A DNA stretch of 64,000 nucleotides from Candidatus Portnoybacteria bacterium (GTDB lineage Bacteria; Patescibacteriota; Minisyncoccia; Portnoybacterales; GWB1-42-6), in contig JAQTYI010000004.1 of the NCBI GenBank assembly GCA_028688325.1, positions 8,638 through 72,637 on the forward strand, in the 5' to 3' direction. Each line of letters starts with the position of its first letter. The stretch's first letter is position 1. A program made the position numbers and the translations under genes. Of this stretch, positions 319 through 62,998 are shown piece after piece. Below the pieces are notes generated by a model, which did not search any database, had not been told where the DNA came from, and saw only the letters and a program-made list of their open reading frames with translations.

Positions 319-410
319 AGTCCTTCGCCCCGCTCAGGACATTATCCGAAAGCGCCCATCCGAATTCCATTAGGAGCATTCGGATGTGATTCGTAGATTC
401 GGATCGCTTT
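319..410. repeat. ATTCGGAT-family intergenic element (copy 1) plus a degenerate GTCAT-family right-end fragment
   Basis: catccgaat...attcggatg...attcggatcgctt shared with 9133-9232; tccttcgccccgctcaggac resembles the element right end. Confidence 0.4.
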
Positions 411-1482: not shown

Positions 1483-1485
1483 GTT

Positions 1486-1620
1486 GTCATTCCGAGCCCC
1501 GCATCCAAAATCATAGATTTTTGGTGCGGGATAAACTCCGCGAGGAATCTCGCGGGAGCGTAGCGATCCGCGCAACAGATCTGGCATCCGCCAGAGATCC
1601 TTCGCTTCGCTCAGGATGAC
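1486..1620. repeat. GTCAT-family MITE-like element (TIR gtcattccgagc / gctcaggatgac)
   Basis: Near-identical copies at 14726, 16672, 25493; terminal inverted repeats seen directly. Confidence 0.7.
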
Positions 1621-1675
1621 AAATGGAGTGATTTTAATTGGTAAACTGTTTGTATGCTATAATAAAATTACCTTT

Positions 1676-3310: not shown

Positions 3311-3448
3311 AAAATCACCTCCTTGTGGTTTACAAAATTTTTTATGAAAAGAACGATTCTTTAAATCCGCATCTAAGCCCTGTATAAAAAATACGGGGCT
3401 GGAATTCGGGTTTAAATATAAATTACAAGGTCAAGTATAAACACAATT

Positions 3449-3531
3449 GTCATCCCGGGCTTGACCCGGGATCCAGGCCCCTGGATTCCCGCTTTCAGTT
3501 TACCCCGCACTTGATGCGGGGCGGGAATGAC
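3449..3531. repeat. GTCAT-family element, CCCGGG-hairpin variant (reverse orientation of the 58541 copy)
   Basis: gtcatcccgggcttgacccggg...gcgggaatgac; its reverse complement matches 58541-58629. Confidence 0.65.
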
Positions 3532-3650
3532 AGTTGAAAGTATTTATACTTCTATTAACACAGGCAGAACCACCCCGTAAAATTTCGCTGCGCGAAATCA
3601 CGGGGCGAGACGCGGTATTATAATGCTGGCAGGCGCGTCCGTGTTAGTTT

Positions 3651-5516
3651 TTATACCTCTATCAGTACTGGCAGAACCATAGGCCTTCGCTCGGTTTTAG
3701 TGTATAAGAATTGGCCTATTTTGTCACGCACCTGGTCTTTTATGTAGTCCTCATTGAGCGGGCCTTTGGCGCCGATCGAGTGGTGCACTATTTCTTTGAC
3801 TTTCTGGCGCACCTGGTAAAGTAATTCTTTGGACTCGCGCATATAAATAAATCCGCGGGAGATTATGTCGGGGCTGTTGCGCACTTGGCGAGTTTGCGTA
3901 TCTATCGTGACGATGACCACGAACATTCCGTCCTGTGCCATGGCCTGGCGGTCGCGCAAAACGACTTGGCCGATATCGCCAACACCCAATCCGTCAACGA
4001 ATACATAGCCCGTGGGCACTTTTTTGTTGTGGATCTTGGGCTCGCCGGTGCTGGCAAATTCCAAAACAGCTCCATTATCCAAAACGAAGATATTGGCCTT
4101 GTGCATGCCGACTTCCACGGCCAGCTTGGCCGCTTCTTTGAGCATGTAGTGATTTCCGTAGACCGGAATAAAAAAATCCGGTTTTATTTGCCCGATTATT
4201 TCTTTGATGTTCTGGGCGTTGCAGTGGCCGCTGGTATGCACATCCATAATGTCGGTGTGAATTACATTGTCGGATTGGCGGTAGAGATTATCTTTCAGAC
4301 GCTGGACCGTGCGCTCGTTTCCGGGAATTACGGAAGAGGAAAAAATAATGGTGTCTTGTTTGCGCACTTTGATGAAGCGGTGGTCGCCGGCAACAATGCG
4401 CGAAAGAACCGCGTTGCCTTCGCCCTGCGCGCCGGTGCAAATGATGATTATCTTATTGTCCGGATATTTGTGCAGGTCGTTGACCGTGATTAGGGTTTCC
4501 TTGTCAACTTTGATATAGCTCAGCTCCTTGGCGATTTCCACATTCATTTTCATACTGAAGCCGTCCAGCGCGACTTTTTTGCCGACTGTCTTGGCGTATT
4601 CCAGAATATGGCCCACGCGCCGGATCTGCGAAGCAAATGTGCCGATGATGACTTTGCCGGTCGCTTCGTTGATAAGTTTTTCCAAATTGGCATACATTTC
4701 TTTTTCGGTGACATGGCTTGTGCTCATATCGGTGGCGCCCAAGCTTTCAAGCATGAGGACTTTAGGGCCGGGCAGCGCGGCCAGGTGCGCATAAGAAAGC
4801 AATTTGCCGCTGATGGGATCTTTGTCCATGGTCCAGTCGCCGGGATGCACGACCGTGACCGAAGGGGTCTGCAATATTACGCCGACCGCGTCCATTATGG
4901 AATGTTCAACATCGAAAAAACTCAGATTGAAATTGCCCAGGTGTATTTTGTCTTGGATGGATTTGACGGGAATTATGTCCAGGCGCTTGGCGGAGCTTTT
5001 TTCATAGTCCTCCAGCCGTTTTTTTATCAAAGCGATGGTCAGGTCGCGCCCGATGATAGGCGGGTAATTCAGTTTTTGAAGCAATATGGGAGCTGCGCCG
5101 ATATGGTCCAAGTGGCCATGGCTGAAGATCACGGCTTGGATATCTTTTTCTCTGCCTTGCAGGTATGAAATGTTGGGAATGATGTAGTCGATTCCCGGCA
5201 TATCTTCTTCGGGGAATTGCACGCCCATATCCAAAATAACGATATCTTTGCCGTATTCAAAGATGGTCATGTTGCGGCCGACTTCTTCCTGGCCGCCCAA
5301 AGGAATTATTTTCAGGGTATTTTCGCCCTTGTTCTTATAGTCGTTTATACCGGCGTCGCTCGGGCCCGCTTGTCCGTGGCTGCCGGAATAACCGGTTCTT
5401 TTCTGACCCGGTTTCTTGCCGCGCGGGCGAAATCTGGCGGCCGCTCCGCTTCGATGAGTCGAAGGAGAAACGGGCCGGCTCGCTTGCGAGCGAGGTATGT
5501 TTGTTTGAGGTGTCAT
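3651..5516 (-). CDS. rnj: Ribonuclease J (metallo-beta-lactamase/beta-CASP) with ~65 aa basic low-complexity N-terminal extension
   Basis: SHGHLDHIGA motif; beta-CASP architecture; length typical apart from the extension. Confidence 0.82.
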   Translation of the reverse strand: MTPQTNIPRSQASRPVSPSTHRSGAAARFRPRGKKPGQKRTGYSGSHGQAGPSDAGINDYKNKGENTLKIIPLGGQEEVGRNMTIFEYGKDIVILDMGVQFPEEDMPGIDYIIPNISYLQGREKDIQAVIFSHGHLDHIGAAPILLQKLNYPPIIGRDLTIALIKKRLEDYEKSSAKRLDIIPVKSIQDKIHLGNFNLSFFDVEHSIMDAVGVILQTPSVTVVHPGDWTMDKDPISGKLLSYAHLAALPGPKVLMLESLGATDMSTSHVTEKEMYANLEKLINEATGKVIIGTFASQIRRVGHILEYAKTVGKKVALDGFSMKMNVEIAKELSYIKVDKETLITVNDLHKYPDNKIIIICTGAQGEGNAVLSRIVAGDHRFIKVRKQDTIIFSSSVIPGNERTVQRLKDNLYRQSDNVIHTDIMDVHTSGHCNAQNIKEIIGQIKPDFFIPVYGNHYMLKEAAKLAVEVGMHKANIFVLDNGAVLEFASTGEPKIHNKKVPTGYVFVDGLGVGDIGQVVLRDRQAMAQDGMFVVIVTIDTQTRQVRNSPDIISRGFIYMRESKELLYQVRQKVKEIVHHSIGAKGPLNEDYIKDQVRDKIGQFLYTKTERRPMVLPVLIEV

Positions 5517-9747: not shown

Positions 9748-9906
9748 TCAATAAAAAGATGCCTTCTTTTTGATCATCCGTTTCAAATTCAAAACGCTTT
9801 TGCCCGAAACCGCCATTTTCGGGCGTTTCTTTTTCAGGCGGCGCTTAGCTTTTTGTTCCAGGATTTTTTGGAGTTGTTCGGAGTTTGCTTGCACGCTCAT
9901 AGTCAT
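9748..9906 (-). CDS. Small basic protein (hypothetical); start codon lies inside the repeat TIR
   Basis: ATGACTATG... on the minus strand is the complement of the gtcat TIR; K/R-rich 52 aa. Confidence 0.2.
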   Translation of the reverse strand: MTMSVQANSEQLQKILEQKAKRRLKKKRPKMAVSGKSVLNLKRMIKKKASFY

Positions 9907-9991
9907 TCCGAGCAAAGCGAGGAATCTCCCGCGTATGCGAGGTGAATCGCACATTCGTGCGAGATTCTTCGGTCTATGGCCTCAGAATGAC
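9902..9991. repeat. GTCAT-family element (short variant)
   Basis: gtcattccgagc...cctcagaatgac. Confidence 0.65.
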
Positions 9992-10016: not shown

Positions 10017-11198
10017 TCATTGTCGTAATTTTCTCCTATGCAATTTCCGATAATACGATATCGCAAATCTGTGCGCTTCATTGCGGATGGCCTGAAAAAG
10101 CAGGCGTAAGTCCACCGGAAGTTTGCTAAGGAGCAGGGTCTTATCGCTATATATAGTATACAATTCCTCTTCTTTTTTGGCTAACGAGATAATAGCAGGT
10201 CGCGTATCGCTCGGCACTAAGCGATTGGCGAATTGCGATACGGCCGCGTTCAGCTGCGTCTGGCCGCCATCTATAAGCATAATGTCGGGCAGGGGCCATT
10301 CTTTGTGGTTCAGCCGCCTGGATAAAACTTCTTTTAGCATAGCGACATCATTGGCGCCCCGGACCGTTTTGATGCGGAATTTGCGGTAGTCGGATTTTTT
10401 GGGTTTATAGCCGTCAAAGACAATCATTGAGCCGGTGGCGCTGGTTCCCTGAATGTTGGAAATATCATAGGCCTCGATTCTTATCGGTTCACCGGCGTAG
10501 AGCCGGAGGAATTGTTTTAGGGTGTTAAGCGATTCGTGGTATTTTTTTAACCCCTCCTGCACCGTTTTCTTACAAAAAACGGCGCTTCCCCCCTTTGCAA
10601 AAGGGGGGTTGGGGGTTTTTTTTGACGATTGACGATTTGCGATTGGCGATTGGCCGTGCGCCGGGCACAAACCAAGGTGCCACTGCAAGCATGGCTTATC
10701 ATACGCATTTTTACAGGTGCGATAAGGCAGAATCTTGCGCAGGGCGCGCAAAACCCGTTTGAGCTCTTTGCCGTTGGTGAAGGGACCGATGGGGTCAGCT
10801 GTTAGCTTGTAGCTTTTAGCTTTTAGGTTATGGACAATCAGCACTCTCGGCCATTCGTCATCTGTAAAATTAACTCGTAAATAACTTTTATCGTCCCGCC
10901 ATTGGATATTATATTTTGGCGCATATTTTTTTATCAGCTGATCTTCCAATATCAGCGCATCTTTTTCATCGGCGGTCTTGATGAAATCAATGTCGGAAAT
11001 CCCTCCCAACCTCCCTTTTGCAAAGGGGGGAGCAGGGGGGTTAAATTTGCTTTGGCTGCTTGGAATAAAGTGCGAGCGCACGCGATTGCGCAAATTAACC
11101 GCTTTGCCGATATACAAAATCCGCCCCTGGGCGTCTTTGAATAAATAGACGCCGGGTTTTTGGGGAAGGGCTTTTATTTGTTTTTTTATTGTTGACAT
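10017..11198 (-). CDS. uvrC: Excinuclease ABC subunit C, compact form (GIY-YIG + Cys-rich + RNase H-like endonuclease; no C-terminal HhH region)
   Basis: GVYLFKDAQGRILYIGKAVNLRNRV GIY-YIG; CLQWHLGLCPAHG; DISNIQG...LIDGGQTQL...IRNEAHRFAI. Start set at MSTIKKQ. Confidence 0.8.
   Translation of the reverse strand: MSTIKKQIKALPQKPGVYLFKDAQGRILYIGKAVNLRNRVRSHFIPSSQSKFNPPAPPFAKGRLGGISDIDFIKTADEKDALILEDQLIKKYAPKYNIQWRDDKSYLRVNFTDDEWPRVLIVHNLKAKSYKLTADPIGPFTNGKELKRVLRALRKILPYRTCKNAYDKPCLQWHLGLCPAHGQSPIANRQSSKKTPNPPFAKGGSAVFCKKTVQEGLKKYHESLNTLKQFLRLYAGEPIRIEAYDISNIQGTSATGSMIVFDGYKPKKSDYRKFRIKTVRGANDVAMLKEVLSRRLNHKEWPLPDIMLIDGGQTQLNAAVSQFANRLVPSDTRPAIISLAKKEEELYTIYSDKTLLLSKLPVDLRLLFQAIRNEAHRFAISYYRKLHRRKLRQ
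10586..10616. repeat. Poly-C/poly-G hairpin element, in frame in uvrC (encodes TPNPPFAKGG)
   Basis: cccccctttgcaaaaggggggttggggg. Confidence 0.7.
10797..10827. repeat. CTAAAAGC tandem-repeat element, in frame in uvrC (encodes NLKAKSYKLTA)
   Basis: cagctgttagcttgtagcttttagcttttag, the reverse complement of the ctaaaa[g/a]c family. Confidence 0.55.
11001..11042. repeat. Poly-C/poly-G hairpin element, in frame in uvrC (encodes NPPAPPFAKGRLGG)
   Basis: ccctcccaacctcccttttgcaaaggggggagcagggggg. Confidence 0.7.
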
Positions 11199-11727: not shown

Positions 11728-14715
11728 ATGAAAGGTGAGTTTATAAAAATCAAAGGCGCCAGAGTCCACAATCTCAAAAATGTTTCCTTGGATATCCCCA
11801 AGGGCAAGTTGGTGGTGATAACCGGTCTTTCCGGTTCGGGAAAATCGTCTTTGGCGTTTGATACCATCTACGCCGAAGGCCAGCGCCGGTATGTTGAGAG
11901 TTTATCCGCCTATGCCAGGCAGTTTTTGGGCGTGATGGATAAGCCCGATGTCGATTCCATCGACGGCTTGTCGCCTGCCATTGCCATTGACCAGCGAAGT
12001 GTTTCCAAGAATCCGCGTTCTACCGTGGGCACAATAACGGAGATATACGATTATATGCGTTTGCTTTTTTCCCGCGTGGGCAAACCGTATTGCCCCGAAT
12101 GCGGCAAAATTATTTCCCGCCAGAGCCCCAGCGCCGTGGCGGAAGCTGTCTTAAAATATCCCGCGGGCGCGCAAATAACGATCTTGGGTCCGCTGGTGCG
12201 CGCCAAAAAAGGCGAACATCATGGAATTTTGGAGCAGGCGCAAAAAGCGGGATTCGTCAATGTGCGCGTTGATGGCATCGTGCACCGCCTGGAAGAGGCG
12301 ATGGGTTTGGAATTGGATAAGCAAAAAAAGCACAGCATCGAAGTTGTGGTTGACCGAGTGGAAGTGCCCAGTGCCGCGGACAAGGATGAGCGCGCCAGAA
12401 TAGTTGATTCCATAGAAACAGCTTTGAAAGTTGGTAAGGGAATGATGATAGTGAGCAAGAATCAGGATTCTGGGTCCCGGGTCAAGCCCGGGACGACATC
12501 ATTTTTAAAAAATGATGTCGTTTTTTCCGAGCTTTTTGCCTGCGAAAAATGCGGCATTTCTCTGCCGGAGATCGAGCCGCGCCTTTTTTCGTTCAACAGC
12601 CCTTTCGGCGCCTGCCCCGAATGCCAGGGACTGGGCAGTAAACTGGAAATCGATCCTAAATTGGTTATGCCAAACCCGCGCCTAACTTTGGCGGAAGGCG
12701 TGATCCGCCCTTGGGCCACGGCTTCGCACCGCGTGGGCCGGCAGGGATATTATTACTGGCTTATTAGCAAGTTGGCCGAGGCCAATGAATTTTCTTTGAA
12801 CACTCCCGCGGGGGAGTTGCCGAAAGATGTTGTTAAAAAAATCCTCTATGGCGATTCGAAAAATGACTACGAAGGCGTTATTCCGAATCTGGAGCGGCGC
12901 TGGAAAGAAACCGATTCTGATTTCGCGCGCGCGGAGATAGAAAAATATATGCAGGTGCGCCAATGCCCGTTGTGCCACGGCGCCAGGTTGAAACGCGAAG
13001 CGCTGGCGATACGAATAAATTCACTTAACCCCCCTGGGCCCCCCTTTAAAAGGGGGGTTGGGGGGTTAAATATCGCCGATGTTTCCGCGATGAGCATCGA
13101 GGCGGCCAAAAAATACTTTGAGGATCTGAAATTATCCGCCAACGACGCCGAAATTGCTAAGCCCGTTGTCAAAGAAATCCTAAAGCGGTTGAAATTCTTG
13201 CTCGATGTGGGGCTTGACTATCTGACCATCGGCCGTGAATCGACCACTCTTTCGGGCGGAGAAGCGCAAAGAATTCGCCTGGCCACGCAGATCGGTTCCG
13301 GGCTTTCCGGCGTGGTTTATATTTTGGACGAGCCGTCCATCGGCTTGCACCAGCGGGACCTCGCGCGCCTCATCGCCACGCTTTTCCAGTTGCGGGACCT
13401 GGGCAACACTGTGATAGTGGTTGAGCACGACGAGCAGACCATCCTGGCGGCGGATTGGATTGTTGATGTGGGGCCGGGAGCGGGAATTCATGGCGGAAAA
13501 ATAATTTTTGCCGGCACCCCCGCGCAGCTTTTAAAATCCGATTGTTTGACCGGGCAATATTTGTCAGGGAAAAAATCCGTGTCATCAGGTGGTCATCCTG
13601 ACCCCGCAGCGGCGGGGTCAGGATCTAAAAAAGATTCTTCGGCCTCCGGCCTCAGAATGACAGATAAAAATAAGGAACACTTATGGGGAGAACCTGGATC
13701 CCGGGTCAAGCCCGGGATGACAAAGTCATCGGGTTCTTTGCAGATAATCGGCGCCACGGAGCACAACCTGAAAAATATCGATGTAAAAATACCATTGCAG
13801 AAATTTGTGGCCGTGACGGGCGTTTCCGGCTCAGGCAAAAGCACGCTGGTTAATGATATTCTGGGCAAATCTTTAAGCCGCGATTTTCACGGCGCTCATC
13901 AACAACCAGGCGCGCATAAGGAAATTTTTGGCACGGATAATCTGGATAAAGTCATAATCGTGGACCAGTCGCCCATCGGCCGCACGCCCCGTTCCAACCC
14001 CGCCACTTATACTGGCATATTTACGCCCATTCGCGATATTTTTTCCCAAACGCAAGAGGCCAAAATTCGCGGCTACAGCGCGGGGCGCTTCAGTTTTAAT
14101 GTTAAAGGCGGCCGGTGTGAAAATTGCGAAGGCGACGGCGTCAAAAAGATAGAAATGTATTTTTTGCCCGATGTTTATATCGAGTGCGAGGTCTGCCATG
14201 GCCAGCGATATAATAAAGAAACACTGGAGATAGAGTATAAAGGCAAGAATATCGCGCAGATATTGGCGATGCCGGTTGAAGAGGGCTATGATTTTTTCAA
14301 GAATCTTCCGGCGTTGGAGCAAAAATTGCGCACACTCAAAGAAGTCGGTTTGGGGTATATGAAATTGGGGCAATCTTCAACAACTCTTTCGGGCGGCGAA
14401 GCGCAACGCATAAAACTGGCCACGGAACTGGCGCGGCGCGACACCGGCAACACATTATATATATTGGATGAGCCCACAACCGGCCTGCATTTTGACGATA
14501 TCCGGCGATTACTCACAGTTTTGCGCGAACTTGTCAAGAGAGGCAATTCCGTGTTAGTAATTGAGCATAATTTGGATGTCATCGCGAGCACCGACTGGGT
14601 GATAGACCTGGGGCCGGAAGGCGGGGAAAAGGGCGGTTATGTTGTGGCGCAGGGAACGGTTGAAGAGATTATCAAGAGCAAGAAGAGCTATACGGGAAAA
14701 TATTTGAAGGAATAA
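11728..14715 (+). CDS. uvrA: Excinuclease ABC subunit A, with three in-frame repeat-derived insertions
   Basis: Two ABC ATPase halves, [10 protein letters not shown], zinc-finger CxxC motifs. Start set at [16 protein letters not shown]; ~1000 aa against a typical ~940-950. Confidence 0.9.
12464..12528. repeat. GTCAT-family module (cccgggtcaagcccggg hairpin plus gacgacatcattttt/aaaaatgatgtcgt palindrome), in frame in uvrA
   Basis: Encodes [19 protein letters not shown]; the same module occurs at 3449 and 13694. Confidence 0.6.
13027..13067. repeat. Poly-C/poly-G hairpin element, in frame in uvrA (encodes [14 protein letters not shown])
   Basis: aacccccctgggcccccctttaaaaggggggttggggggtt. Confidence 0.7.
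13580..13735. repeat. Composite GTCAT-family insertion (~55 codons), in frame in the uvrA inter-domain linker
   Basis: gtcatcctgaccccgcagcggcggggtcagg...cctcagaatgac plus ctggatcccgggtcaagcccgggatgac; encodes [13 protein letters not shown]...[11 protein letters not shown]. Confidence 0.65.
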
Positions 14716-14725
14716 ACCAAAAATT

Positions 14726-14790
14726 GTCATTTCGAGCCCCGCATCCAAAATCATAGATTTTTGGTGCGGGATAAACTCCGCGAGGAATCT
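14726..14790. repeat. GTCAT-family half element (left module only)
   Basis: Identical to the left module at 1486 and 25493. Confidence 0.6.
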
Positions 14791-14797
14791 GTTCCAA

Positions 14798-14912
14798 AGA
14801 ATTTCTAATTGCTCTAATTTCTAATTGACCTAATCAATGACCAATGCCTAAATTTAGAAATTAGGATTTGGGATTTGATTAGGAATTAGGTTAATTAGGT
14901 AATTAGAAATTA
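14798..14912. repeat. Long AT-rich imperfect palindrome, CAATGACCAATG family (copy 1)
   Basis: tcaatgaccaatgcc...ggatttgggatttg; related copies at 45897-46008 and 62836-62950. Confidence 0.5.
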
Positions 14913-15021
14913 ACGCAGCTCCTTCCTACCTCGACTCGCCGTCAAGGCGAGGCCGGGCACTTCGTTCAGGACGACAATTTCATCGCCGGTTTTTTAACAA
15001 CTTTACAAAAGGAGGCGCGAG

Positions 15022-16148: not shown

Positions 16149-16160
16149 GGAAGGCATCCT

Positions 16161-16188
16161 TGACTTTACTGTTAATTTGTATAGAATA
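16161..16188 (+). promoter_or_regulatory. Sigma-70-like promoter for groESL (TTGACT-N16-TAGAAT)
   Basis: Hexamers seen directly; a second TATAAT at 16191-16196 overlaps the spurious ATG of the track ORF. Confidence 0.45.
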
Positions 16189-16253
16189 CTATAATGAATA
16201 CGAATTGGCAGTCCCGATTAACGACTGCTAAAAAGAAGCTTATTATTTATGGT

Positions 16254-16313
16254 GTCATTCTGAGGGCGCAGCCCGAGAATCTGTTAAAGATCCTTCGCTT
16301 CGCTCAGGATGAC
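16254..16313. repeat. GTCAT-family element (short) in the groES 5' leader
   Basis: gtcattctgagggcgcagcccgagaatct...gatccttcgcttcgctcaggatgac. Confidence 0.65.
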
Positions 16314-16625: not shown

Positions 16626-16671
16626 GTTCTAAAATGAATTTTCAGTTTACAATTATCAATTTTCAAAAATT

Positions 16672-18483
<1,812 letters not shown>

Positions 18484-19796: not shown

Positions 19797-20096
19797 ATGC
19801 ACTATACTTATATTTTATTAAGCTCAAAATCCCATATTTTTTATTTCGGATCAACGAACGATTTGAAGAAAAGATTAATTTTACATAATTCTGGCAAGGT
19901 ACCATCCACTAAACCGCATATTCCTTGGATTCTGGTATGGTACGGTGCTTTTCAGGCAGAAAAACAAGCAAGGGATTTTGAGCTTTACTTGAAAAATGGA
20001 TCGGGGAAGGCCTTTGCTTATAAAAGATTAGTTTCGGTAGCTTTGGCGAAGGATTTTGAATCCGGGAGAAAAGGTAGTCCGAAGCTAAAAGCGTAG
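19797..20096 (+). CDS. Small GIY-YIG nuclease-family protein (copy 2)
   Basis: YTYILLSSKSHIFYFGSTNDLKKRLILHNSGK; start reset downstream of the tRNA. Confidence 0.6.
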   Translation: MHYTYILLSSKSHIFYFGSTNDLKKRLILHNSGKVPSTKPHIPWILVWYGAFQAEKQARDFELYLKNGSGKAFAYKRLVSVALAKDFESGRKGSPKLKA

Positions 20097-20100
20097 GATA

Positions 20101-20114
20101 CCCTCCCTCTCCGC
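20101..20114. repeat. 14-bp direct repeat of the tRNA-Ser 3' end (ccctccctctccgc), att-like
   Basis: Identical to 19756-19769. Confidence 0.55.
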
Positions 20115-20240
20115 CAGATGTCCAAGTTATAACCGAGGTAAAATAAGGGATTTTGACGATTGAAAAGCTGGTATCCGTAAAGATGTCGGTTTTTCAATAA
20201 TACTTATCAATAGCAAAGAAAATTGGTATAATAGAGTCAT

Positions 20241-21413
20241 ATGAATGGAAGTCAAAAACATCTAAATCATATAGACGCCATTAATCTTGGGTCATATTAT
20301 ACCCCAGGTATTATTGTTGATTTGGCTTATTCTATTTTGCAAAAAAATATCAAAGATATTAAAGATTTTTCAATATTAGATTCTTCTTGTGGTTACGGTT
20401 CTTTTTTGATAAGAAACAACATTGTGAAAAGATTGATTGGAGCCGATATCGATCAAAAAGCCATTTCTGAAGCAAAAAAAATAATTAGCGGAGTTGATTT
20501 TATCTGTCAAAATTCTCTTTTGAATGTTAGTCGTTCAAGTTTAATGATTAAGAATGATGAAAAAATTATAACCATAGGAAATCCTCCATATAACGATACA
20601 ACATCTATAATTCGTAATTCCATTAAAGATACTTCCATTCAGGATAAAATCGATGCCGACATAAAAACTAGGGATTTAGGCATGTCATTTTTATTGTCTT
20701 ACGACAAACTAAAAGCGGATTATGTTTGTGTTTTGCATCCTTTATCATATTTAATCAAAAAAGCCAATTTTGCCCTGCTTTCAAAATTCGCTAAAAATTA
20801 TAAATTAATTGACGGAATAATCATAAGCAGTCACGAATTTTCTGATACTTCTCGCGGAATGGCTTTTCCGATCTTGATCGCCCTTTATGAGAGGGATGAA
20901 AAAGGAATGGACTATAATTATATTCAAAATTATCAGTTCAAGGTGAAGGACGATGGTATTTTCCGTCTAAAGGATTTTGATACTATAGTCAACTATGTTC
21001 AAAAATATCCAAATAAAAAATTTTTAAATAAAAATGACAAGCCAGTAGCAAGGTTTTGGACTTTGAGAGATATAAATGCACTTAAACGAAACAGGACTTT
21101 TATTGATGAAGATACTTATAATACCGTTTATGTGTTAATGGAAAAATTGCCCTATTATTGCTACATCGATATTTTCAAACAATATACAGATAGAATGCCT
21201 TATTTCATTGGCAATTGTGATGTGATAATTGATAATGAAAAATTCGGAAAAATAAAGGAGTGCTTTATTGCCCAAAGCGTTCACACAAATCCGGTATTAA
21301 GAAATAAGTTTAGGTTTAGAGAAATTCCGGATGCAAAATTTAAAATAGATAACTATTTTAAAGAGTTGTTAGAAAATAAATTTGGAAAAAAACATGCCGC
21401 AAATTTTAATTAA
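20241..21413 (+). CDS. N6-adenine DNA methyltransferase, gamma class (YTP...FxGxG...NPPY), with C-terminal target-recognition region
   Basis: LGSYYTPGIIVDL; ILDSSCGYGSFL (motif I); GNPPY (motif IV); very AT-rich. Confidence 0.7.
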   Translation: MNGSQKHLNHIDAINLGSYYTPGIIVDLAYSILQKNIKDIKDFSILDSSCGYGSFLIRNNIVKRLIGADIDQKAISEAKKIISGVDFICQNSLLNVSRSSLMIKNDEKIITIGNPPYNDTTSIIRNSIKDTSIQDKIDADIKTRDLGMSFLLSYDKLKADYVCVLHPLSYLIKKANFALLSKFAKNYKLIDGIIISSHEFSDTSRGMAFPILIALYERDEKGMDYNYIQNYQFKVKDDGIFRLKDFDTIVNYVQKYPNKKFLNKNDKPVARFWTLRDINALKRNRTFIDEDTYNTVYVLMEKLPYYCYIDIFKQYTDRMPYFIGNCDVIIDNEKFGKIKECFIAQSVHTNPVLRNKFRFREIPDAKFKIDNYFKELLENKFGKKHAANFN

Positions 21414-22155
21414 AAAAGACGAACATAAAATAAAAATACCAATTTTATTAACTGCTGTTAGTGGAAAAATTCGCATTAAAAACCGATCAATTTTGAATGA
21501 ATACGGAACGCCAGTTGCAGTTAAAAGAGATGGTTTCTTATTAAGCAATTATGTCGAGTGGCAAATTGGCTACGATGTGGTTAAAAAGGAAACAGAAAAG
21601 CTCGCAGAGTCATCACTACCCGAAACTGAATTTATTGGGGCAAATGGAAAGGTCAAGGCGCTTTATGAATTGTCAGAGTATATCTGGTATTTTTATAAAT
21701 GGAACATTATCACCAGAGAAGAATTAGAGAGCGTTATCGCTTATCTTGATTCGATACAAGACCAGAATTTAATTGATAATAATTCCGAGTTGCAAATTGA
21801 CCGCAGTCATCCAATTGAGAAAAATATAAATGGATTTGATTTTGAATATACTCAAGTTAAATACCCTCTATTGATTTACAAATTTAATGGATACGAAATT
21901 ATTACCGAAATAAAAATTACCGAAAAGCAATATGCGGTTGGCACACAGCCAATGTTGTATTTATGTTTTCCAATCACAGAGTTAAAATCAGAAGTTAATT
22001 TAATTGGACGATGCGCCGAAATAAAAGAAATTGCCTATTTTGAAATTTCGGAAAGTAATATTAAAGTATTTTTGGAAATGCTAAAAATGTTTGGCATTTT
22101 ATCTAAAAACCACAAACACGATATTCTACAGATTATTAATACGATTTTAGAATAA
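21382..22155 (+). CDS. Hypothetical protein overlapping the methyltransferase by 32 nt; candidate restriction endonuclease or partner
   Basis: Operon overlap; AT-rich; possible D...EIK nuclease-like motif (weak). Confidence 0.4.
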   Translation: MEKNMPQILIKKDEHKIKIPILLTAVSGKIRIKNRSILNEYGTPVAVKRDGFLLSNYVEWQIGYDVVKKETEKLAESSLPETEFIGANGKVKALYELSEYIWYFYKWNIITREELESVIAYLDSIQDQNLIDNNSELQIDRSHPIEKNINGFDFEYTQVKYPLLIYKFNGYEIITEIKITEKQYAVGTQPMLYLCFPITELKSEVNLIGRCAEIKEIAYFEISESNIKVFLEMLKMFGILSKNHKHDILQIINTILE

Positions 22156-24395: not shown

Positions 24396-24508
24396 TTTCA
24401 AGGCAATTTAAGGCCATTTTAGGGCTCTGGCGCCGGTTTTTCCTTGTAAAACTGGCGCTGTTAGAGTATAATCGCAATGTCTGACATGCGTAATAATCTC
24501 ATAAAGAC

Positions 24509-25005: not shown

Positions 25006-25062
25006 GTCATTCTAAGGCCGTAGGGCGAAGATTCTAAGATCCTTCGCTTCGCTCAGGATGAC
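25006..25062. repeat. GTCAT-family element (short)
   Basis: tgtcattctaaggccgtagggcgaagattct...gatccttcgcttcgctcaggatgac. Confidence 0.65.
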
Positions 25063-25074: not shown

Positions 25075-25482
25075 ATGAAAAAACTCATTGTTCTGATAAT
25101 CATTGTTCTGGCCGGTGGCTGGGCTTTGCAAAATTACACCAGCTTCAGGGCGATGGACTACGCCAAAGATTATTGGCAGAAAGTTGACTGGTCAAAAATA
25201 AATGTTTTTTCCAGAGACAAGGCGGTTCCCGATGCCAGCAAACAGCTCAATATTTTTATCAAAGAAAGCAAATTTACTCCTAATTTCAGCGCTGCCGAAT
25301 CGGGCATAAAAGCAACCTGGTTCAACGAGGATGATGAAAAACATACCGTAACGGGCGACAGCTGGGGCAGCGGCGAAATCGCGCCGGGCAAGGCATATAG
25401 CAAAATATTCAATGAAGCGGGAACCTATAAATACCATTGTTCTATACACCCAAGCATGACGGGGGAAATTATAGTTAAATAA
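25075..25482 (+). CDS. Cupredoxin (type-1 blue copper protein, plastocyanin/azurin family) with signal peptide
   Basis: YKYHCSIHPSMTGEIIV C-terminal Cu-ligand motif. Confidence 0.7.
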   Translation: MKKLIVLIIIVLAGGWALQNYTSFRAMDYAKDYWQKVDWSKINVFSRDKAVPDASKQLNIFIKESKFTPNFSAAESGIKATWFNEDDEKHTVTGDSWGSGEIAPGKAYSKIFNEAGTYKYHCSIHPSMTGEIIVK

Positions 25483-25492
25483 AAAGATAATT

Positions 25493-25650
25493 GTCATTCC
25501 GAGCCCCGCATCCAAAATCATAGATTTTTGGTGCGGGATAAACTCCGCGAGGAATCTCGCGGGAGCGTAGCGACCCGCGCAACGGTCTCGCATACGCGAG
25601 AGATCCTTCACGGAGTTTATACTGAACGAAGTGAATGTGTTCAGGATGAC
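25493..25650. repeat. GTCAT-family element (full length); its right TIR contains the dnaG start codon
   Basis: Left end identical to 1486; right end ...gtgttcaggATGACc. Confidence 0.7.
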
Positions 25651-27505
25651 CAAAGCATTGGACGGAGTGATTGATCAAATAAAACAAAAACTCGATATTT
25701 TAGAAGTGTTGGGGGAATATATCAAACTCACCAAGGCCGGCCGGAACCATAAGGCGAAGTGCCCCTTTCATGCCGAGCGCTCGGCTTCCTTTATGGTTTC
25801 GCCAGAGCGCCAGATTTGGCATTGTTTTGGGTGCGGCCTGGGCGGGGATATTTTCGGATTCGTGATGAAAATAGAGGGCGTGGAATTTGGCGACGCGCTG
25901 CGTCTTTTGGCGCGGCGAGCCGGCGTGACATTGAAAAAACAGGATCCGCAGGTCCAATCGCAAAAAAAGCGGCTATACGATATTTGCGAGCTGGCCGCCA
26001 AATTTTTTGAAACGCAATTGCATAAAACCGCAGCGGGTAAAAAAGCGTATGAATATCTTGCCGAACGGGGAATGAAGGCACAAACAATAAAGGACTGGCG
26101 GCTGGGTTGGGCACACGATGATTGGCGCGCGTTGGGAGATTTTTTGAAAAGCAGGGGATACAAGGAGGATGAGATAGAAACAGTCGGGTTGATAATCAAA
26201 AAAGATTATAACTCCCCCCAACCCCCCATTAATTTAAGAGGGGGTGAGCGGAGCGGGGGGGCGTTAGGCCATTATTATGATAGATTCAGGAGTAGAATAA
26301 TTTTTCCGATTGCAGACAGCCAGGGCCAGGTGATAGCGTTCGGCGGCAGGATATTCGGCGAGGCGGCCAAAAAAGAAGATGTGGCCAAATATCTCAATTC
26401 GCCCCAGACCCCGCTTTATGATAAAAGCAGCGTTCTTTACGGATTGAACAAGGCCAAAAACGATATCCGCGTCAAAGACCAATGTGTTATAGTCGAAGGG
26501 TATATGGATTTGATAATGTCGCACCAGGCCGGCATTGCCAACGCGGTGGCGTCTTCCGGCACGGCCTTGACCGAAAACCATCTGGCAATTATTGGTCGCT
26601 ATGCTAAAACCCTGGCTATGGCGTTCGATTCGGACGAGGCCGGCGGTATGGCCACGCGCCGCAGCATCGATCTGGCGCTGAGGCGGGATTTCAATGTCAA
26701 AGTCATATTGATGGATGAAAAAGATCCGGCCGATATCGTCAAAAAGGATCCGGCGGAATGGCCGAAATTGATAGAAAACGCCCAGAGCATAATGGATTTT
26801 TATTTCACTTACGCTTTTGCCAAGCGCGACGCCAAATCGGTTGAAGGCAAGCGCGAGATAAGAAAAATCTTATTGACAGCCATAAAATCCATCGCCAGCA
26901 AGACCGAGCAGGGCGAATGGATAAACGAATTGGCGCGCCGTTTGCGCGCGGACGAGCGGGACCTTTTGGCCGATATGAAGAAAATAAAATTGGAAACGCC
27001 GGAGGATTATGGCGGCGCGCCAAACAGCGAACCCGCGCAGATTATCGCCAAATCCCGGCTTGAGGGGCTCGAAGAAAGATTTCTGGGGTTGTGTCTGAGC
27101 CATCCGAAACATTTTTCCGAGATCACCGCTGACGAAAGCGACTTTCATAATGACGATTTGGCGCAAATTTTTAAAGGGTTAAAGAAGCTGTCGGGTAAAA
27201 AAGAAGGCAATGAGCTGCTGGTGTCGCTCCGTAAAGAATTAAAGCCGGAATTGCAGATAAAGATCGACTACCTCATATTCCAGATTGAGCAGCACGAGAG
27301 GGACGAAAAAGACATCATCGCGGAAATCGCTTCTTGCATCCTGGAACTTAAGCTTTTGCGGTTAAGGAATAAATTGACGGCCTTGAGCTTTGACATCAAA
27401 GACGCCCAGCAAGGCAAAGATAAAAATAAACTGGGAAAACTTTTAAAACAATTCGATCAGACATCTTCCGATTTAAACAGCATAACAAACACAGATGCCA
27501 GGTAG
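25646..27505 (+). CDS. dnaG: DNA primase DnaG with an in-frame poly-C element insertion
   Basis: CPFHAERSASFMVSPERQIWHCFGCGLGGD zinc-binding; TOPRIM EGYMDLI...DSDEAG. Confidence 0.85.
   Translation: MTKALDGVIDQIKQKLDILEVLGEYIKLTKAGRNHKAKCPFHAERSASFMVSPERQIWHCFGCGLGGDIFGFVMKIEGVEFGDALRLLARRAGVTLKKQDPQVQSQKKRLYDICELAAKFFETQLHKTAAGKKAYEYLAERGMKAQTIKDWRLGWAHDDWRALGDFLKSRGYKEDEIETVGLIIKKDYNSPQPPINLRGGERSGGALGHYYDRFRSRIIFPIADSQGQVIAFGGRIFGEAAKKEDVAKYLNSPQTPLYDKSSVLYGLNKAKNDIRVKDQCVIVEGYMDLIMSHQAGIANAVASSGTALTENHLAIIGRYAKTLAMAFDSDEAGGMATRRSIDLALRRDFNVKVILMDEKDPADIVKKDPAEWPKLIENAQSIMDFYFTYAFAKRDAKSVEGKREIRKILLTAIKSIASKTEQGEWINELARRLRADERDLLADMKKIKLETPEDYGGAPNSEPAQIIAKSRLEGLEERFLGLCLSHPKHFSEITADESDFHNDDLAQIFKGLKKLSGKKEGNELLVSLRKELKPELQIKIDYLIFQIEQHERDEKDIIAEIASCILELKLLRLRNKLTALSFDIKDAQQGKDKNKLGKLLKQFDQTSSDLNSITNTDAR
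26212..26261. repeat. Poly-C/poly-G hairpin element, in frame in dnaG (encodes SPQPPINLRGGERSGGAL)
   Basis: ctccccccaaccccccattaatttaagagggggtgagcggagcggggggg. Confidence 0.7.
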
Positions 27506-27624: not shown

Positions 27625-28845
27625 ATGTCAAAAAATAAAAAACGGCTCGGAAAAAAGAAAAAAATTAAAAAAGTGGCCAAAAAGAGTGCGAGAAAAACTA
27701 AGAAAAAAAAGGCCGCCAAAAAAGGCAAAATAAAAAGAACCAAACGGGCTCAAAAAGCGCTGTTTTCCGATGAGCGGGTGAATCTTTTCATCAACCGAGG
27801 CCGTCAAAGAAGTTTTGTCACTGAAACCGAGCTCATTCATTTTTTCCCCCATATTGAATTTGACATCGAGGGGCTGGAAGAATTATACCGCAAGTTGGAG
27901 TCCGCTAATATCAAGGTTGTTGAAGCGGGTCAATTAATAGAAAAACCGTCTTCGCCGGATGATAAGCCGGTAAAAACGGCGAAAGACAGGGACTCGCTGC
28001 GCGGCTCGGAGCATACAGTTTTGGATTCGGTGCAGATGTATCTGCGCGAGATAGGGCGGGTGCCGCTGTTGAAATCCGAAGAAGAAATAGAATTGGCCAA
28101 GCAAAATGAAAAGGGCAATGAGGCGGCCAAGCAGCGCTTGACCAGCGCCAATTTGCGCCTGGTGGTTTCTATCGCTAAAAGATATGTGGGCCGCAGCCCG
28201 AATCTGACTTTATTGGATCTGATACAAGAGGGGAATATCGGGCTTTTTAAGGCCGTGGAAAAATATGATTGGCGCCGGGGATATAAATTCTCAACTTATG
28301 CCACCTGGTGGATTCGTCAAGCCATAACGCGCGCGCTGGCGGACCAGTCGCGCACCATCCGCATTCCCGTGCATATGGTGGAGACAATTTCCAAATACAC
28401 GCAGGTCAAGCGCCGTCTCTTGCAAGATCTGGGACGCGAGCCCTTGCCGGAAGAGGTGGCGATGGAAATGGGCATCGAAGTTGAAAAAGTCCGCCAGATA
28501 ATGAAAATTTCGCAAGAGACGGTTTCTCTGGAAGCGCCGGTGGGCGGAGACGAAGAGGATTCAACGCTGGGAGAATTCATTGAAGATGAAAAAACCATTT
28601 TACCGCATCACTCGGCCGCGCGCCGCTTGCTGAAAGAGCAACTGGATAATATTTTAGTTGACCTGGCGCCGCGCGAGCAAAAAATTCTAAAAATGCGCTT
28701 CGGCCTGGAAGACGGAGTAACGCACACCCTGGAAGAAGTGGGCAAAGAATTTGGTGTTACTCGCGAGCGCATCCGACAGATCGAAGCCAAAGCGCTCGAT
28801 AAGATTCGCATGCACGGCAGCTCTAAAAAATTAAAGGGATATTAA
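27625..28845 (+). CDS. rpoD: RNA polymerase sigma-70 factor RpoD with lysine-rich N-terminal extension
   Basis: Regions 1.2-4 conserved ([18 protein letters not shown]; [17 protein letters not shown]). Confidence 0.88.
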
Positions 28846-28870
28846 CAGTTTTTAGTTTGTAGTTTTTAGA
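28846..28870. repeat. CTAAAAAC-family repeat (direct copy with 29373-29404)
   Basis: acagtttttagtttgtagtttttag. Confidence 0.55.
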
Positions 28871-28874
28871 AATT

Positions 28875-29369
28875 ATGATAGTTAATATCTTATTAATTTG
28901 CATAATCGTGATTTTGTTGACGGCGGCTTTTTTGTTTACAATTTTGCCATTGGTCGTTCCGGGAATTATTTTTACGATCGCAGCCGCCCTGATACTGGTT
29001 TTCTGGAAAGGAATGGCGGCGCTCGGCATTTGGAATTTAGCCGTGATCTTATTGATGGGCGTCCTTTATTTTTCTTTTGACTGGCTCGGTGGAGCGCTGG
29101 GCGCCAAGAAATTCGGCGGTTCAAAATATGGGGTCTGGGGCGCGATTATTGGTGGAATTCTGGGAATTCCCCTGGGCGGATTACCGGGAGTTATCTTGGG
29201 CACAGTGATTGGCGCGGCGGTTTTCGAACTTCTGTTCAATAAAGAAAAATTCGGCCAGTCGTTGAAGATCGGTTTTGGAGCGGGCCTTGGTTTTGTTTTA
29301 GGCACCTTTGGCAAAGTAATTTTGGTGATAATAGCGACAATCTCATTCGTTTCAGGCGTTTGGAAATAA
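28875..29369 (+). CDS. DUF456-family membrane protein
   Basis: Gly-rich 4-TM pattern GAIIGGILGIPLGGLPGVILGTVIGAAV. Confidence 0.55.
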   Translation: MIVNILLICIIVILLTAAFLFTILPLVVPGIIFTIAAALILVFWKGMAALGIWNLAVILLMGVLYFSFDWLGGALGAKKFGGSKYGVWGAIIGGILGIPLGGLPGVILGTVIGAAVFELLFNKEKFGQSLKIGFGAGLGFVLGTFGKVILVIIATISFVSGVWK

Positions 29370-29372
29370 ATA

Positions 29373-29404
29373 ACAGTTTTTAGTTTGTAGTTTTTAGTTT
29401 TTAG
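29373..29404. repeat. CTAAAAAC-family repeat
   Basis: acagtttttagtttgtagtttttagtttttag; inverted partner at 29779-29808. Confidence 0.55.
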
Positions 29405-29407
29405 ACG

Positions 29408-29773
29408 ATGCAATTGAATTCTTATAAAGATCTAAAAGTTTGGCAAAAAGGGTTGGATTTGGTGATTGGGGTTTATGCGTTGACTGAAAAGTTTCCCCAA
29501 TCGGAAATTTATGGTTTGACCTCACAAATGAGAAGGGCGTCTGTTGCCATCCCGTCAAACATTGCTGAAGGTCAGAAAAGAGGCCACTATAAAGAATTTC
29601 TGCAGTTTTTATTCATAGCTTATGGGTCGGGAGCCGAGCTTAAAACGCAGATAGAAATATGTAAAAAGCTTCCCAAAATAAAAAATTTGGATTATAATAA
29701 TTTGGAGTTAGTTTTAGCGGAAGTGATGAAAATGTTAAACGGCCTGATTACTATATTAAAAAAGCGTTTATAG
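29408..29773 (+). CDS. Four-helix-bundle protein (23S rRNA intervening-sequence protein family)
   Basis: LKVWQKGLDLVIGVYALTEKFPQSEIYGLTSQMRRASVAIPSNIAEG family signature. Confidence 0.7.
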   Translation: MQLNSYKDLKVWQKGLDLVIGVYALTEKFPQSEIYGLTSQMRRASVAIPSNIAEGQKRGHYKEFLQFLFIAYGSGAELKTQIEICKKLPKIKNLDYNNLELVLAEVMKMLNGLITILKKRL

Positions 29774-29778
29774 CTTTA

Positions 29779-29808
29779 CTAAAAACTACTTACTACAAAC
29801 TAAAAACT
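29779..29808. repeat. CTAAAAAC-family repeat, inverted relative to 29373-29404
   Basis: ctaaaaactacttactacaaactaaaaact. Confidence 0.55.
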
Positions 29809-29816
29809 ATATATAT

Positions 29817-29888
29817 TCCGCGGTAGCTCAGTGGTAGAGCGAGCGACTGTTAATCGCTTGGTCGCAGGTTCGAATCCTGCCCGCGGAG
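29817..29888 (+). tRNA. tRNA-Asn (anticodon GTT)
   Basis: Manual fold: acceptor TCCGCGG/CCGCGGA, D-arm GCTCAGTGGTAGAGC, anticodon loop CTGTTAA, T-loop TTCGAAT. Confidence 0.85.
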
Positions 29889-38184: not shown

Positions 38185-38982
38185 ATGGATTTTTCATATG
38201 CAATCATTTTGGGCGTCGTTGAGGGAATAACGGAGTTTTTGCCGATCTCTTCAACAGGGCACCTGATGCTGACGGCGCGTCTTTTGGATCTGGGCCAAAG
38301 CGAATTCTTGAAAAGTTTTGAGATCATCATCCAGCTGGGCGCGATCTTATCGGTGGTAGCTTTATACTGGCGGGAGCTTTTGGTCAAATGGGAGACAATG
38401 AAGCGCGTAGTCGTTGCTTTTGTTCCAACGGGGATTATCGGCTTGGTGCTGTATAAAATCGTTAAAGCTTATTTGCTGGGCAGTGAAACGGTGGTTTTGT
38501 GGAGTATGTTTTTGGGCGGATTATTTTTATTAGCGTTTGAATATTGGTACGGAAAAAAATCCCCCCTAACCCCCCTTTTACAAAGTGGGGAAAATAATAA
38601 ATTGGAAAATATCTCCTACGGCCAGGCCGCGGCGCTGGGTTTGTTTCAATCAATTGCGATAATTCCCGGCGTTTCGCGCTCGGCCGCCACAATTCTGGGG
38701 GGCTTATTCATGGGAATTTCTCGCAAAACAATCGTTGAATTTTCTTTTTTGCTGGCTGTGCCGACAATGCTGGCGGCCACCCTCCTCGATCTTTTTAAAA
38801 GCGCCGGTCAGTTTTCTTTGTCTCAGTGGGATTTTTTGGCTGTAGGTTTTTTTGTTTCTTTCGTTACGGCTTTGACTTCCATCAAGTTTCTGCTCAATTT
38901 TATCAAGAAGCATTCCTTTATCGCCTTTGGCGCTTATCGCATGGCGATTGCCTTGATTTTTTGGTTTTTTATTGTAAGATGA
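38185..38982 (+). CDS. uppP: Undecaprenyl-diphosphatase UppP/BacA with in-frame poly-C half-element
   Basis: VVEGITEFLPISSTGHLML. Confidence 0.85.
   Translation: MDFSYAIILGVVEGITEFLPISSTGHLMLTARLLDLGQSEFLKSFEIIIQLGAILSVVALYWRELLVKWETMKRVVVAFVPTGIIGLVLYKIVKAYLLGSETVVLWSMFLGGLFLLAFEYWYGKKSPLTPLLQSGENNKLENISYGQAAALGLFQSIAIIPGVSRSAATILGGLFMGISRKTIVEFSFLLAVPTMLAATLLDLFKSAGQFSLSQWDFLAVGFFVSFVTALTSIKFLLNFIKKHSFIAFGAYRMAIALIFWFFIVR
38560..38590. repeat. Poly-C element (left half plus degenerate right), in frame in uppP (encodes SPLTPLLQSGEN)
   Basis: tcccccctaaccccccttttacaaagtgggg. Confidence 0.55.
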
Positions 38983-45857: not shown

Positions 45858-45896
45858 ATATTATTAGGATAAGCTCAGAGAAAAATCCGCATTTAT

Positions 45897-46008
45897 AATG
45901 TCAAATGACCAATGTCTAATGACAAATCCATGACAAAGTTCCAAATCCAAATTTTTGACATTTGATATTGGGATTTTATTTGTCATTGGAAATTTGTCAT
46001 TTTAAGCA
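45897..46008. repeat. Long AT-rich palindrome, CAATGACCAATG family (copy 2)
   Basis: tgtcaaatgaccaatgtctaatgacaaat...tccaaatccaaattt. Confidence 0.5.
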
Positions 46009-51370: not shown

Positions 51371-51472
51371 GTCATCCTGAGCACATTCGCTTCGCTCAGC
51401 ATAAACTCTGCGAAGGATCTAAAAATAGATTCTTCGCTGCGCCCCGCAGCCGCGGGCTTCGCTCAGAATGAC
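51371..51472. repeat. GTCAT-family element; right TIR supplies the upstream ATG of the next ORF
   Basis: gtcatcctgagc...cttcgctcagaATGACc. Confidence 0.65.
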
Positions 51473-51482
51473 CGAAATCATT

Positions 51483-52853: not shown

Positions 52854-52877
52854 AACATAATTTACTAAGCTTCTAAA

Positions 52878-55259: not shown

Positions 55260-55307
55260 ACAGCTTATCCACTTTTTCATTCCGCTTTTTTTTGATATAC
55301 TTCCATT

Positions 55308-56411: not shown

Positions 56412-56415
56412 AATC

Positions 56416-62950: not shown

Positions 62951-62998
62951 CCATTAAAAGATTAAATTCCTTGCTCGACTTTGAATGACTAAAAACAA

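Follow-up and report, generated by a model that had tools for sequence, protein, structure and literature searches.

Short palindromic repeats recur throughout a 64-kb stretch of DNA (64,000 nt, hereafter the window) from a metagenome-assembled genome (MAG) of Candidatus Portnoybacteria, a bacterium of the Patescibacteria or candidate phyla radiation (CPR). One copy, at 25493-25650, fills the spacer between a cupredoxin gene and the primase gene dnaG and holds the annotated dnaG start codon within its right terminus. We consider it likely that these repeats are repetitive extragenic palindromic (REP)-type elements of the (C/T)GTC-tagged superfamily, of which they would be a new CPR member, and that they are not transposons bounded by terminal inverted repeats (TIRs). 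A first-pass annotation had described them as at least 13 copies of an element resembling miniature inverted-repeat transposable elements (MITEs). The family is indeed real, modular and delimited by inverted ends, and all 13 of the sites then listed hold a copy; the positions stand except that the copy placed at 13580 begins at 13592 and the one at 63989 is cut by the end of the window.

The basic unit consists of an unpaired TGTC tag, a stem of nine positions (AT-YCY-GA-GC), a GNA triloop and a CT tail, according to the formula (T)GTC-AT-YCY-GA-GC-GNA-GC-GA-RGR-AT-C(T), as exemplified by GTCATTCCGAGCAAAGCGAGGAATCTC at 9902. From its foot the stem starts with A-T and T-A, continues through YCY and a tandem G.A/A.G mismatch, and closes with GC, which leaves GCGNAGC at the apex. 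Variants keep the TGTC tag and the AT-initiated foot while the upper stem is altered compensatorily (TCCCGGG/CCCGGGA, TTCCCGC/GCGGGAA, TCCTGACCCCGC/GCGGGGTCAGGA); the stem begins with AT in all units, and the tag of window copies reads TGTC, AGTC, GGTC or CGTC. The main type has nine stem positions, counting the two G.A, and a 3-nt GNA loop; in the CCCGGG-type units (3449, 12463 and 13693) the stem measures 8 bp and the loop 5 nt. Units of the CCCGGG and CCCGC types end in a CCA tail at their 3' side (GGATCCAGG, GGAATCCAGG), those of the main type in CT(C), and the core GAGCGNAGCGA is also found alone or with other outer stems. Units mostly stand head to head (TGTCAT...ATGACA) around mosaic spacers of further small hairpins, and the so-called TIRs are self-contained hairpin units that also occur singly. 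In long forms, an extra hairpin plus ATAAACTCC is nested in the loop. The same architecture (inner hairpin, TAAACTCC/TAAACTAC and a regular 3' arm) is present in Coxiellaceae and Terriglobia MAGs and in the locus L091 (L039 6730-6789, L054 6531-6600, L091 ~4300-4380), which indicates that the long form is a conserved variant rather than a local accident.

The pattern GTCATYCYGAGC, allowing at most one mismatch, matches the window 20 times against 0.67 expected, and none of 100 shuffles reached 20. In total we count ~24 hairpin units at 14 loci, amounting to ~1.3 kb or ~2% of the window, and 11 of the 14 loci are head-to-head dimers. A covariance model (A2/R1) built solely from units of other phyla, and thus independent of the window, finds 7 of its units at E<=5e-6 and, less strongly scored, a further 6. 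Sharing between copies can be extensive, as in the 93 nt that the left part of the 1485-1621 copy and positions 25491-25583 have in common at 99% identity. A generic script for GTCA followed by a hairpin and TC was dropped as too permissive (46 matches versus ~36 in shuffles).

The unit is widespread. Scanning one genome per GTDB species with the pattern GTCATYCYGAGCNNNGCGARGRATC yielded at least 120 loci, and among the matches listed the 25-mer unit occurs in more than 20 phyla, including Nitrospirota, Chloroflexota, Acidobacteriota, Planctomycetota, Bacteroidota, Firmicutes, Gemmatimonadota and Omnitrophota, along with several proteobacterial classes and three CPR lineages; one contig, a short one that may be mis-binned, is labelled Nanoarchaeota. 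Viral contigs in IMG/VR carry the unit too, at no fewer than 120 loci. Among the listed genome matches, each of the two degenerate stem pairs is Watson-Crick in 151 of 153 cases, with only 2 T.G; the unconstrained 3-base loop is GNA in 86%; GTC is invariant, and of 149 matches 79% have T before it and 12% have C; and the main-type tail has its T in 79%. An inverted partner lies within 200 nt downstream of 75 of the 145 units, as opposed to 11 with a partner upstream, giving elements of 60-140 bp. Furthermore, the block GGAATCTC-GCGGGAGCGTAGCGACCCGCG, comprising the left unit and central module, recurs verbatim in 9 metagenome contigs of differing contexts, one of which (L252) bears a compact orthologous version of the element that follows uvrA. 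A blastn search of PLSDB plasmids with the consensus dimer gave no match, the query probably being too short and palindromic, and a search of literature full text for the unit sequence returned unrelated primers only.

The apex offers a clue to what is being conserved. GCGNAGC is a "mini-hairpin DNA" motif that melts at 76.5 C as DNA, is far weaker as RNA and is poorly bound by single-stranded-DNA-binding protein (SSB), and it is known, as an SSB-resistant motif, from primase-dependent origins (PMC13037366). Because this apex favours DNA and wobble pairs are nearly absent from the stems, the pattern points to selection acting on a single-stranded DNA hairpin. We envisage the units as non-autonomous; they would spread or be homogenised through recognition of that hairpin by a trans-acting enzyme, an HUH/Y1-type enzyme being our best guess, and/or through gene conversion. 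Comparison with relatives shows that units persist wherever they are tolerated, in short intercistronic spacers, leaders and flexible protein linkers in stop-free frames, and extra modules can be nested in their loops. Those lying in transcribed regions would be transcribed passively and yield strongly structured leaders, and an outward ATG would fall in frame beside a gene about once in three cases, with dnaG probably having adopted one such ATG, given the loss of its ancestral start.

The class assignment follows the survey of CGTC REPs by Di Nocera, De Gregorio and Rocco (2013, BMC Genomics 14:522; PMC3733652), whose supplementary files contain no unit sequences. In that superfamily the tag is often TGTC, stems start with A-T/T-A and tails are CCA; most of the repeats form head-to-head dimers around structured spacers, they are not known to have a dedicated transposase, and members include Neisseria dRS3 and Rickettsia RPE-4 and RPE-6 (PMC3733652). 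They have been found inside uvrA, uvrB and recBCD, their ends supply stop codons, and they overlap annotated N-termini, for which the authors mostly blame mis-called starts (PMC3733652). The CCCGGG-type units of the window fit this text description exactly, and the main GNA-loop type, placed by the text description only, looks like a further family of the CGTC/TGTC superfamily. Several points weigh against our interpretation. With its 3-nt loop and two G.A mismatches, the main unit departs from the four published families, which have 4-5-nt loops and 8-9-bp stems, and the superfamily assignment is made from the text description, which the CCCGGG-type units alone fit squarely. No mobilising enzyme was found in the window or in the fetched loci, and the view of the repeats as mobile draws on presence or absence and near-identical copies, which gene conversion could also yield. 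In addition, the dnaG copies of two genomes agree at 96% where the DNA on either side agrees at 71-80%, which exceeds the conservation expected of a passive relic.

This last comparison comes from relatives, as the first-pass annotation had proposed, and empty sites were indeed found. An element occupies the dnaG site in the window and in the relative L002; the site is empty or different in L001, L003, L125, L126 and L129, where it holds either nothing or unrelated AT-rich palindromes. The DnaG protein of L002 is 72% identical to that of the window and that of L001 88%. The element is shared at 96% identity with L002 (756-850), across cupredoxin and dnaG flanks of 71-80%, while closer relatives have no element there; family-wide conservation of the modules accounts for part only of this identity. 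The two copies differ by two clean indels located exactly in the loops of both end hairpins, which are short in L002. Elsewhere, the uvrA inserts are missing from L003, the groES-groEL copy is missing from that spacer in L003 and L126, a dnaG-rpoD copy is present in L126 and not in the window, and the copy before the cupredoxin gene has orthologs in L001 and L126. Relatives without the TGTC element carry (CATTTAAA)n...(TGTTTTTA)n in their dnaG and groES leaders (L001 983-1050, L125 5382-5450, L126 7812-7880 and 250-325), which indicates that these two leaders always hold some hairpin-forming repeat. Two independent Logan assemblies of the same population, L127 and L128 (equivalent to window 51379-57609 and 51379-53327), are 100% identical to the window. 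They were fetched through an identical HMA-domain protein (P0121) for strain-level presence or absence and show none, as the contigs break in the element; because both begin at 51379, inside its left end, the repeats evidently break short-read assemblies.

The copies had been said to occupy 5' leaders. Some, however, are embedded in the uvrA reading frame, one forms the 3' end of an open reading frame (ORF), and others follow stop codons. The three uvrA copies are in-frame inserts relative to UvrA of L003, and the same two linkers in 45 close homologues carry differing in-frame dimers, always in stop-free frames, that translate as VIPAKAGIQ...VKPGMT, HPERSEGS..., HPELSEGS...DSSADSLGMT and others. 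These hot spots, at window residues ~245 and ~620 (homologues P0242-P0285 aligned), appear to echo the published recurrence of REPs in uvrA. The EamA ORF traverses an element whose decayed terminus contains the TAA stop. Other copies fill the narrow gaps of co-directional genes, separated by 9-46 nt from the preceding stop codon and by 7-13 nt from the following start codon. Several copies do sit upstream of gene starts, that of groES among them, but this position is not specific to leaders: in a co-directional and tightly packed genome, almost any spacer counts as upstream of a start.

At groES, the element is followed by the ATG and preceded both by a promoter-like site (16160-16187) and by an operator resembling CIRCE (16205-16231); the element is thus predicted to be in the mRNA leader, and its position is conserved in L003. 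The operator itself, an inverted repeat of the form TTGGCAGTC-N9-GACTGCTAA, is kept in L003 and L126. By contrast, dnaG has no convincing promoter of its own, with a promoter-like site upstream at 24444-24472, before a PspC-like gene, and the cupredoxin-dnaG gap in L003 measures 8 nt, so the dnaG element is probably intercistronic. The first-pass interpretation, which is supported in part, expected the internal hairpins to give structured 5' untranslated regions. Predicted folding is strong (for 25485-25675, -82.3 kcal/mol as RNA with z -6.9, and z -8.0 as DNA, versus shuffles), and leader placement is predicted for groES, whereas the dnaG copy would lie between cistrons.

The proposal that the repeats donate start codons is plausible at dnaG and does not hold generally. 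The ATG at 25646 does fall within the right terminus, in the reading frame of dnaG. The N-terminus MTKALDG, described as conserved, is found in 1 of 119 homologues (P0020), and the closest relatives begin MSDG, MPDG or MDG. At the nucleotide level, relatives read ATG TCY GAC GG where the window and L002 read ATG ACY AAA GCA TTG GAC GG, so that both genomes with the element have GCA-TTG in place of the ancestral ATG-TCY. They share the in-frame element ATG, and the single difference between them is synonymous. Because the ancestral ATG was lost, we lean toward adoption of the element ATG as the dnaG start. The alternative start is the TTG at 25658, which would give the N-terminus seen in some homologues. 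Against adoption, just two genomes with one synonymous difference between them bear on the question, and neither candidate is preceded by a Shine-Dalgarno sequence; since this genome rarely uses such sequences, the latter criterion is uninformative. Two homologues that might have been further cases of donated starts, P0019 (MTSDG) and P0064 (MTDG), have no element upstream.

Other genes use starts of their own. The same donation had been claimed at 51468 and 9906. At the former, the closest homologues of the HMA protein start MSLQKL..., the conserved native start MSLQK at 51483 is intact and the element ATG adds MTEII only; at the latter, the 52-aa ORF lacks family support. The HMA/DsbD/cupredoxin protein (51468-52853) is 461 aa long versus 595-620 aa in most close homologues and may be shortened. 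In pgm, an in-element ATG at 1616 is in frame, yet the family begins MSNINSSIFKAYDIRG (ATG 1676) right behind TGCTATAAT (1655-1663). Because the family start directly follows this box, the element in the ychF/pgm spacer is likely to lie upstream of the pgm promoter. Their own ATGs are also used by ychF, groES, groEL and the cupredoxin gene. As both ends of a dimer read outward ...GGATGAC, an in-frame ATG beside a gene is expected about once in three cases, and the observed frequency of in-frame terminal ATGs is close to this chance expectation. We also considered the AGGA of the terminus as a Shine-Dalgarno donor and rejected it: its spacing to downstream ATGs is 15-17 nt, in a genome mostly without such sequences.

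Table 1. Repeat loci, candidate dnaG start codons and genes of the window.
Feature	Position	Strand	Remarks
Head-to-head dimer, cupredoxin-dnaG spacer	25493-25650		Long-form units at left (25493-25557) and right (ending GGATGAC at 25650), with central GAGCGTAGCGA hairpin module and spacer hairpin between them
Head-to-head dimer	1485-1621		Fills ychF(-)/pgm(+) divergent spacer
Dimer downstream of RNase J	3448-3532		CCCGGG-type unit 3449-3474 (tail CCA) and dRS3-like long unit 3484-3531
Head-to-head dimer	9902-9991		Between uvrC stop (10017, minus strand) and 52-aa ORF
Single CCCGGG-type unit	12463-12498	-	In frame within uvrA
Head-to-head dimer	13592-13661		In frame within uvrA
Single CCCGGG-type unit	13693-13721	-	In frame within uvrA
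Dimer after uvrA stop	14726-14975		Long-form left unit, nested AT-rich palindrome, decayed right unit CACTTCGTTCAGGACGAC (14958-14975)
Head-to-head dimer	16254-16313		Predicted groES leader, 12 nt before groES ATG 16326
Head-to-head dimer	16672-16825		groES-groEL intercistronic spacer
Head-to-head dimer before cupredoxin gene	25006-25062		Left unit decayed
Head-to-head dimer before HMA/DsbD gene	51371-51472		Terminal ATG 51468 in frame
dRS3-like dimer	58541-58629		Traversed by EamA ORF; gives its last ~28 codons and TAA stop 58626-58628
Left end of further unit	63989-64000	+	Clipped by window edge
dnaG annotated start ATG	25646-25648	+	Inside right terminus, in frame; P0001, 619 aa; candidate donated start
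Alternative dnaG start TTG	25658-25660	+	MDGVIDQ..., as in homologues P0011 and P0025; at relatives' codon after ATG
ychF	409-1482	-	Pfam; starts 1482
pgm (phosphoglucomutase) and RNase J genes			Pfam
uvrC	10017-11198	-	Pfam
uvrA	11728-14715		Pfam
groES	start 16326		Pfam
groEL	start 16837		Pfam
Cupredoxin gene	25075-25482		Pfam; PspC-like gene before, dnaG and rpoD (27625) after
HMA/DsbD protein, EamA transporter and DUF6390 protein genes			Pfam

Repeats of other kinds are present as well. A second palindromic family with C6...G6 runs (AACTCCCCCCAACCCCCC...GGGGG) occurs at 13025-13067, 26210-26248, 10575-10618, 10997-11041, 38555-38592, 55862-55903, 63273-63310 and 63344-63377. Some members lie in frame inside uvrA and dnaG (NSPQPPINLRGGERS), as inserts absent from some relatives, and two more copies lie within the uvrC ORF span. 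Further spacers (14790-14950, 45880-46002 and 62840-62960) are filled by families of AT-rich repeats, palindromic or tandem. The GC content falls to 0.32 at 20001-22000 versus ~0.46 elsewhere, over ORFs 20241-21413 and 21382-22155, which may be foreign DNA.

A more ambitious account, which we regard as unlikely, would join several of these observations: a pan-prokaryotic, phage-borne single-stranded-DNA element, possibly with a universal copying mechanism, would have been exapted in streamlined CPR genomes, where it would provide the primase start codon, remodel linkers of UvrA, UvrC and DnaG, and feed pgm, groEL and dnaG from a long-form promoter. With respect to the last of these, the four long-form-1 units (1484-1511, 14724-14751, 16670-16697 and 25491-25518) all face the downstream gene, and a promoter scan scored TTGTCA-N16-CAAAAT at 1484-1511 and 25491-25518 as 9/12 to the sigma-70 consensus. 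The copy at 14724 has the same sequence, and that at 16670 reads CAAGAT and was unreported by the scan. It is possible that the long form carries a weak element-borne promoter.

Alternatively, the hairpins could be dedicated cis-regulatory RNAs, selected to control the stability, processing or translation of the mRNAs of groES, groEL, dnaG and others. The strong predicted folds (z -6.9) are consistent with this idea, as are the position of the groES copy between the promoter-like and CIRCE-like sites and the ATG, kept in L003, the greater conservation of the dnaG copy relative to its flanking genes, and the other palindromic repeats that element-free relatives bear at the same leaders. However, the same units are also found within the uvrA reading frame, at the 3' ends of ORFs and, among the matches listed, in unrelated contexts of more than 20 phyla and in viral contigs. 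Both orientations are found within one transcript, and the reverse orientation would place pyrimidine mismatches in the RNA; covariation is strictly Watson-Crick with nearly no G.U, the apex motif is far less stable in RNA than in DNA (PMC13037366), and the hairpin of the cupredoxin copy has decayed. Rfam 15 identifies only three tRNAs in the window at gathering thresholds and nothing meaningful at 25400-25750 at E<=10. We consider a regulatory RNA quite unlikely. A hammerhead-like reading of CUGA...GAA was dismissed on inspection, as the core has no second GA/CUGA element.

The idea of a classic MITE fares no better and appears very unlikely to us. Such an element would be a deletion derivative of an insertion sequence (IS), with TIRs bound by a DDE transposase acting in trans and insertion duplicating the target. 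The repeats do resemble this in their size (57-160 bp), their TGTCAT...ATGACA ends, their lack of coding capacity, their many copies and their presence or absence at orthologous sites. Yet no target-site duplication was detected in 65 dimers, direct-repeat matches in the flanking bases being at or below chance for k=1-8, and each presumed TIR is a complete hairpin unit, single at 12463-12498 and 13693-13721 or otherwise combined. The covariation of the stems fits a hairpin and not a linear binding site. No autonomous IS or transposase gene with such ends was found in the window, in the 120 genome loci fetched or in the 120 viral loci fetched, and no transposase of the REP-associated RAYT type flanked by TGTC units occurs in the 64-kb window. 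A tblastn search with the Y1 transposase of L001 gave no match in the window or in the genome loci and one weak match, 4 kb from a unit, in the viral loci (~2 Mb of loci fetched in all). That transposase gene (PF01797), the sole Y1 gene seen, is bounded by unrelated 22-nt inverted repeats AAAAGGTGTCAGGAACCGTTTT and is TIRYT-like. It lies with a tRNA at 4615-5550 of L001, in the DUF456-mscL interval; in the same interval, the window has instead a PF05635 gene for a 23S-rRNA-intervening-sequence protein (29408-29773; region 28836-29819) bracketed by AGTTTTTAGTTTGTAGTTTTTAG repeats.

We give least credence to a host-serving single-stranded DNA structure, in which GCGNAGC mini-hairpins on the lagging-strand template or in repair would be kept by selection and not by transposition, perhaps as SSB-free landmarks, as priming or pausing sites or as binding sites for nucleoid or topology proteins (as proposed for bacterial interspersed mosaic elements, BIMEs); the SSB-resistant apex known from primase-dependent origins (PMC13037366), the conservation of sequence over many phyla with Watson-Crick-only covariation and the lack of a linked transposase would agree with it. 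Positional regularity is nevertheless absent in the window, copies decay and are gained or lost between close relatives, and some lie within coding sequence, which has no evident need of a DNA signal.

CPR genomes of ~1 Mb are thought to hold little mobile DNA, and yet ~2% of the window belongs to one hairpin-repeat family, some of whose members sit in frame within repair genes. What copies CGTC-type REPs is an old question, sharpened here by the exact conservation of the unit across phyla and phages and by its DNA mini-hairpin apex. There is also a practical lesson for annotation, since outward ...GGATGAC ends create in-frame ATGs to which gene callers extend, as in pgm and the HMA gene, and the repeats break assemblies such as L127 and L128. 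If confirmed, dnaG would offer a clear instance of an essential gene that takes its start codon from the end of a repeat.

Among known systems, Correia/NEMIS and other bacterial MITEs (RUP, ERIC, Nezha) resemble the repeats in size, inverted ends and gene adjacency, as well as in co-transcription, predicted long RNA hairpins and the weak promoter-like TTGTCA-N16-CAAAAT of the long form. Unlike Correia elements, with 26-bp TIRs, a TA duplication and a site for integration host factor (IHF), the repeats show none of these, and their ends are autonomous hairpins. The Rickettsia palindromic elements (RPEs) similarly insert in frame in essential or repair genes with the ORF left intact, some at N-termini; RPE-1 is ~100-150 bp long and confined to Rickettsia, whereas the repeats here are single units or dimers of a general TGTC family. 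In common with REPIN/RAYT systems and the REP/BIME elements of E. coli, 5'-tagged hairpins are paired in inverted orientation into a larger hairpin, form mosaics with other motifs and are intercistronic. In contrast to REPIN/RAYT, the tag is TGTC rather than GTAG or GTGG, a RAYT flanked by these units is absent from the window, and the family is conserved across phyla rather than species-specific.

The closest resemblance is to the CGTC/TGTC REPs. The repeats share with them a short palindrome that is preceded on its 5' side by an unpaired (C/T)GTC tag and has a stem starting A-T, T-A, short 3' tails (CCA in the CCCGGG- and CCCGC-type units of the window), a prevalence of head-to-head dimers with variable or structured spacers, the absence of a flanked transposase, and inserts in uvrA and other repair or replication genes, with ends that overlap ORF termini. 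They differ in several respects: the most frequent unit combines a GNA triloop with a tandem G.A pair in its stem, the loops of the published families being 4-5 nt long, the host belongs to the CPR (Portnoybacteria), a group absent from the published survey, the loop-nested long forms carry a conserved TAAACTCC, and a terminal ATG possibly serves as a start codon.

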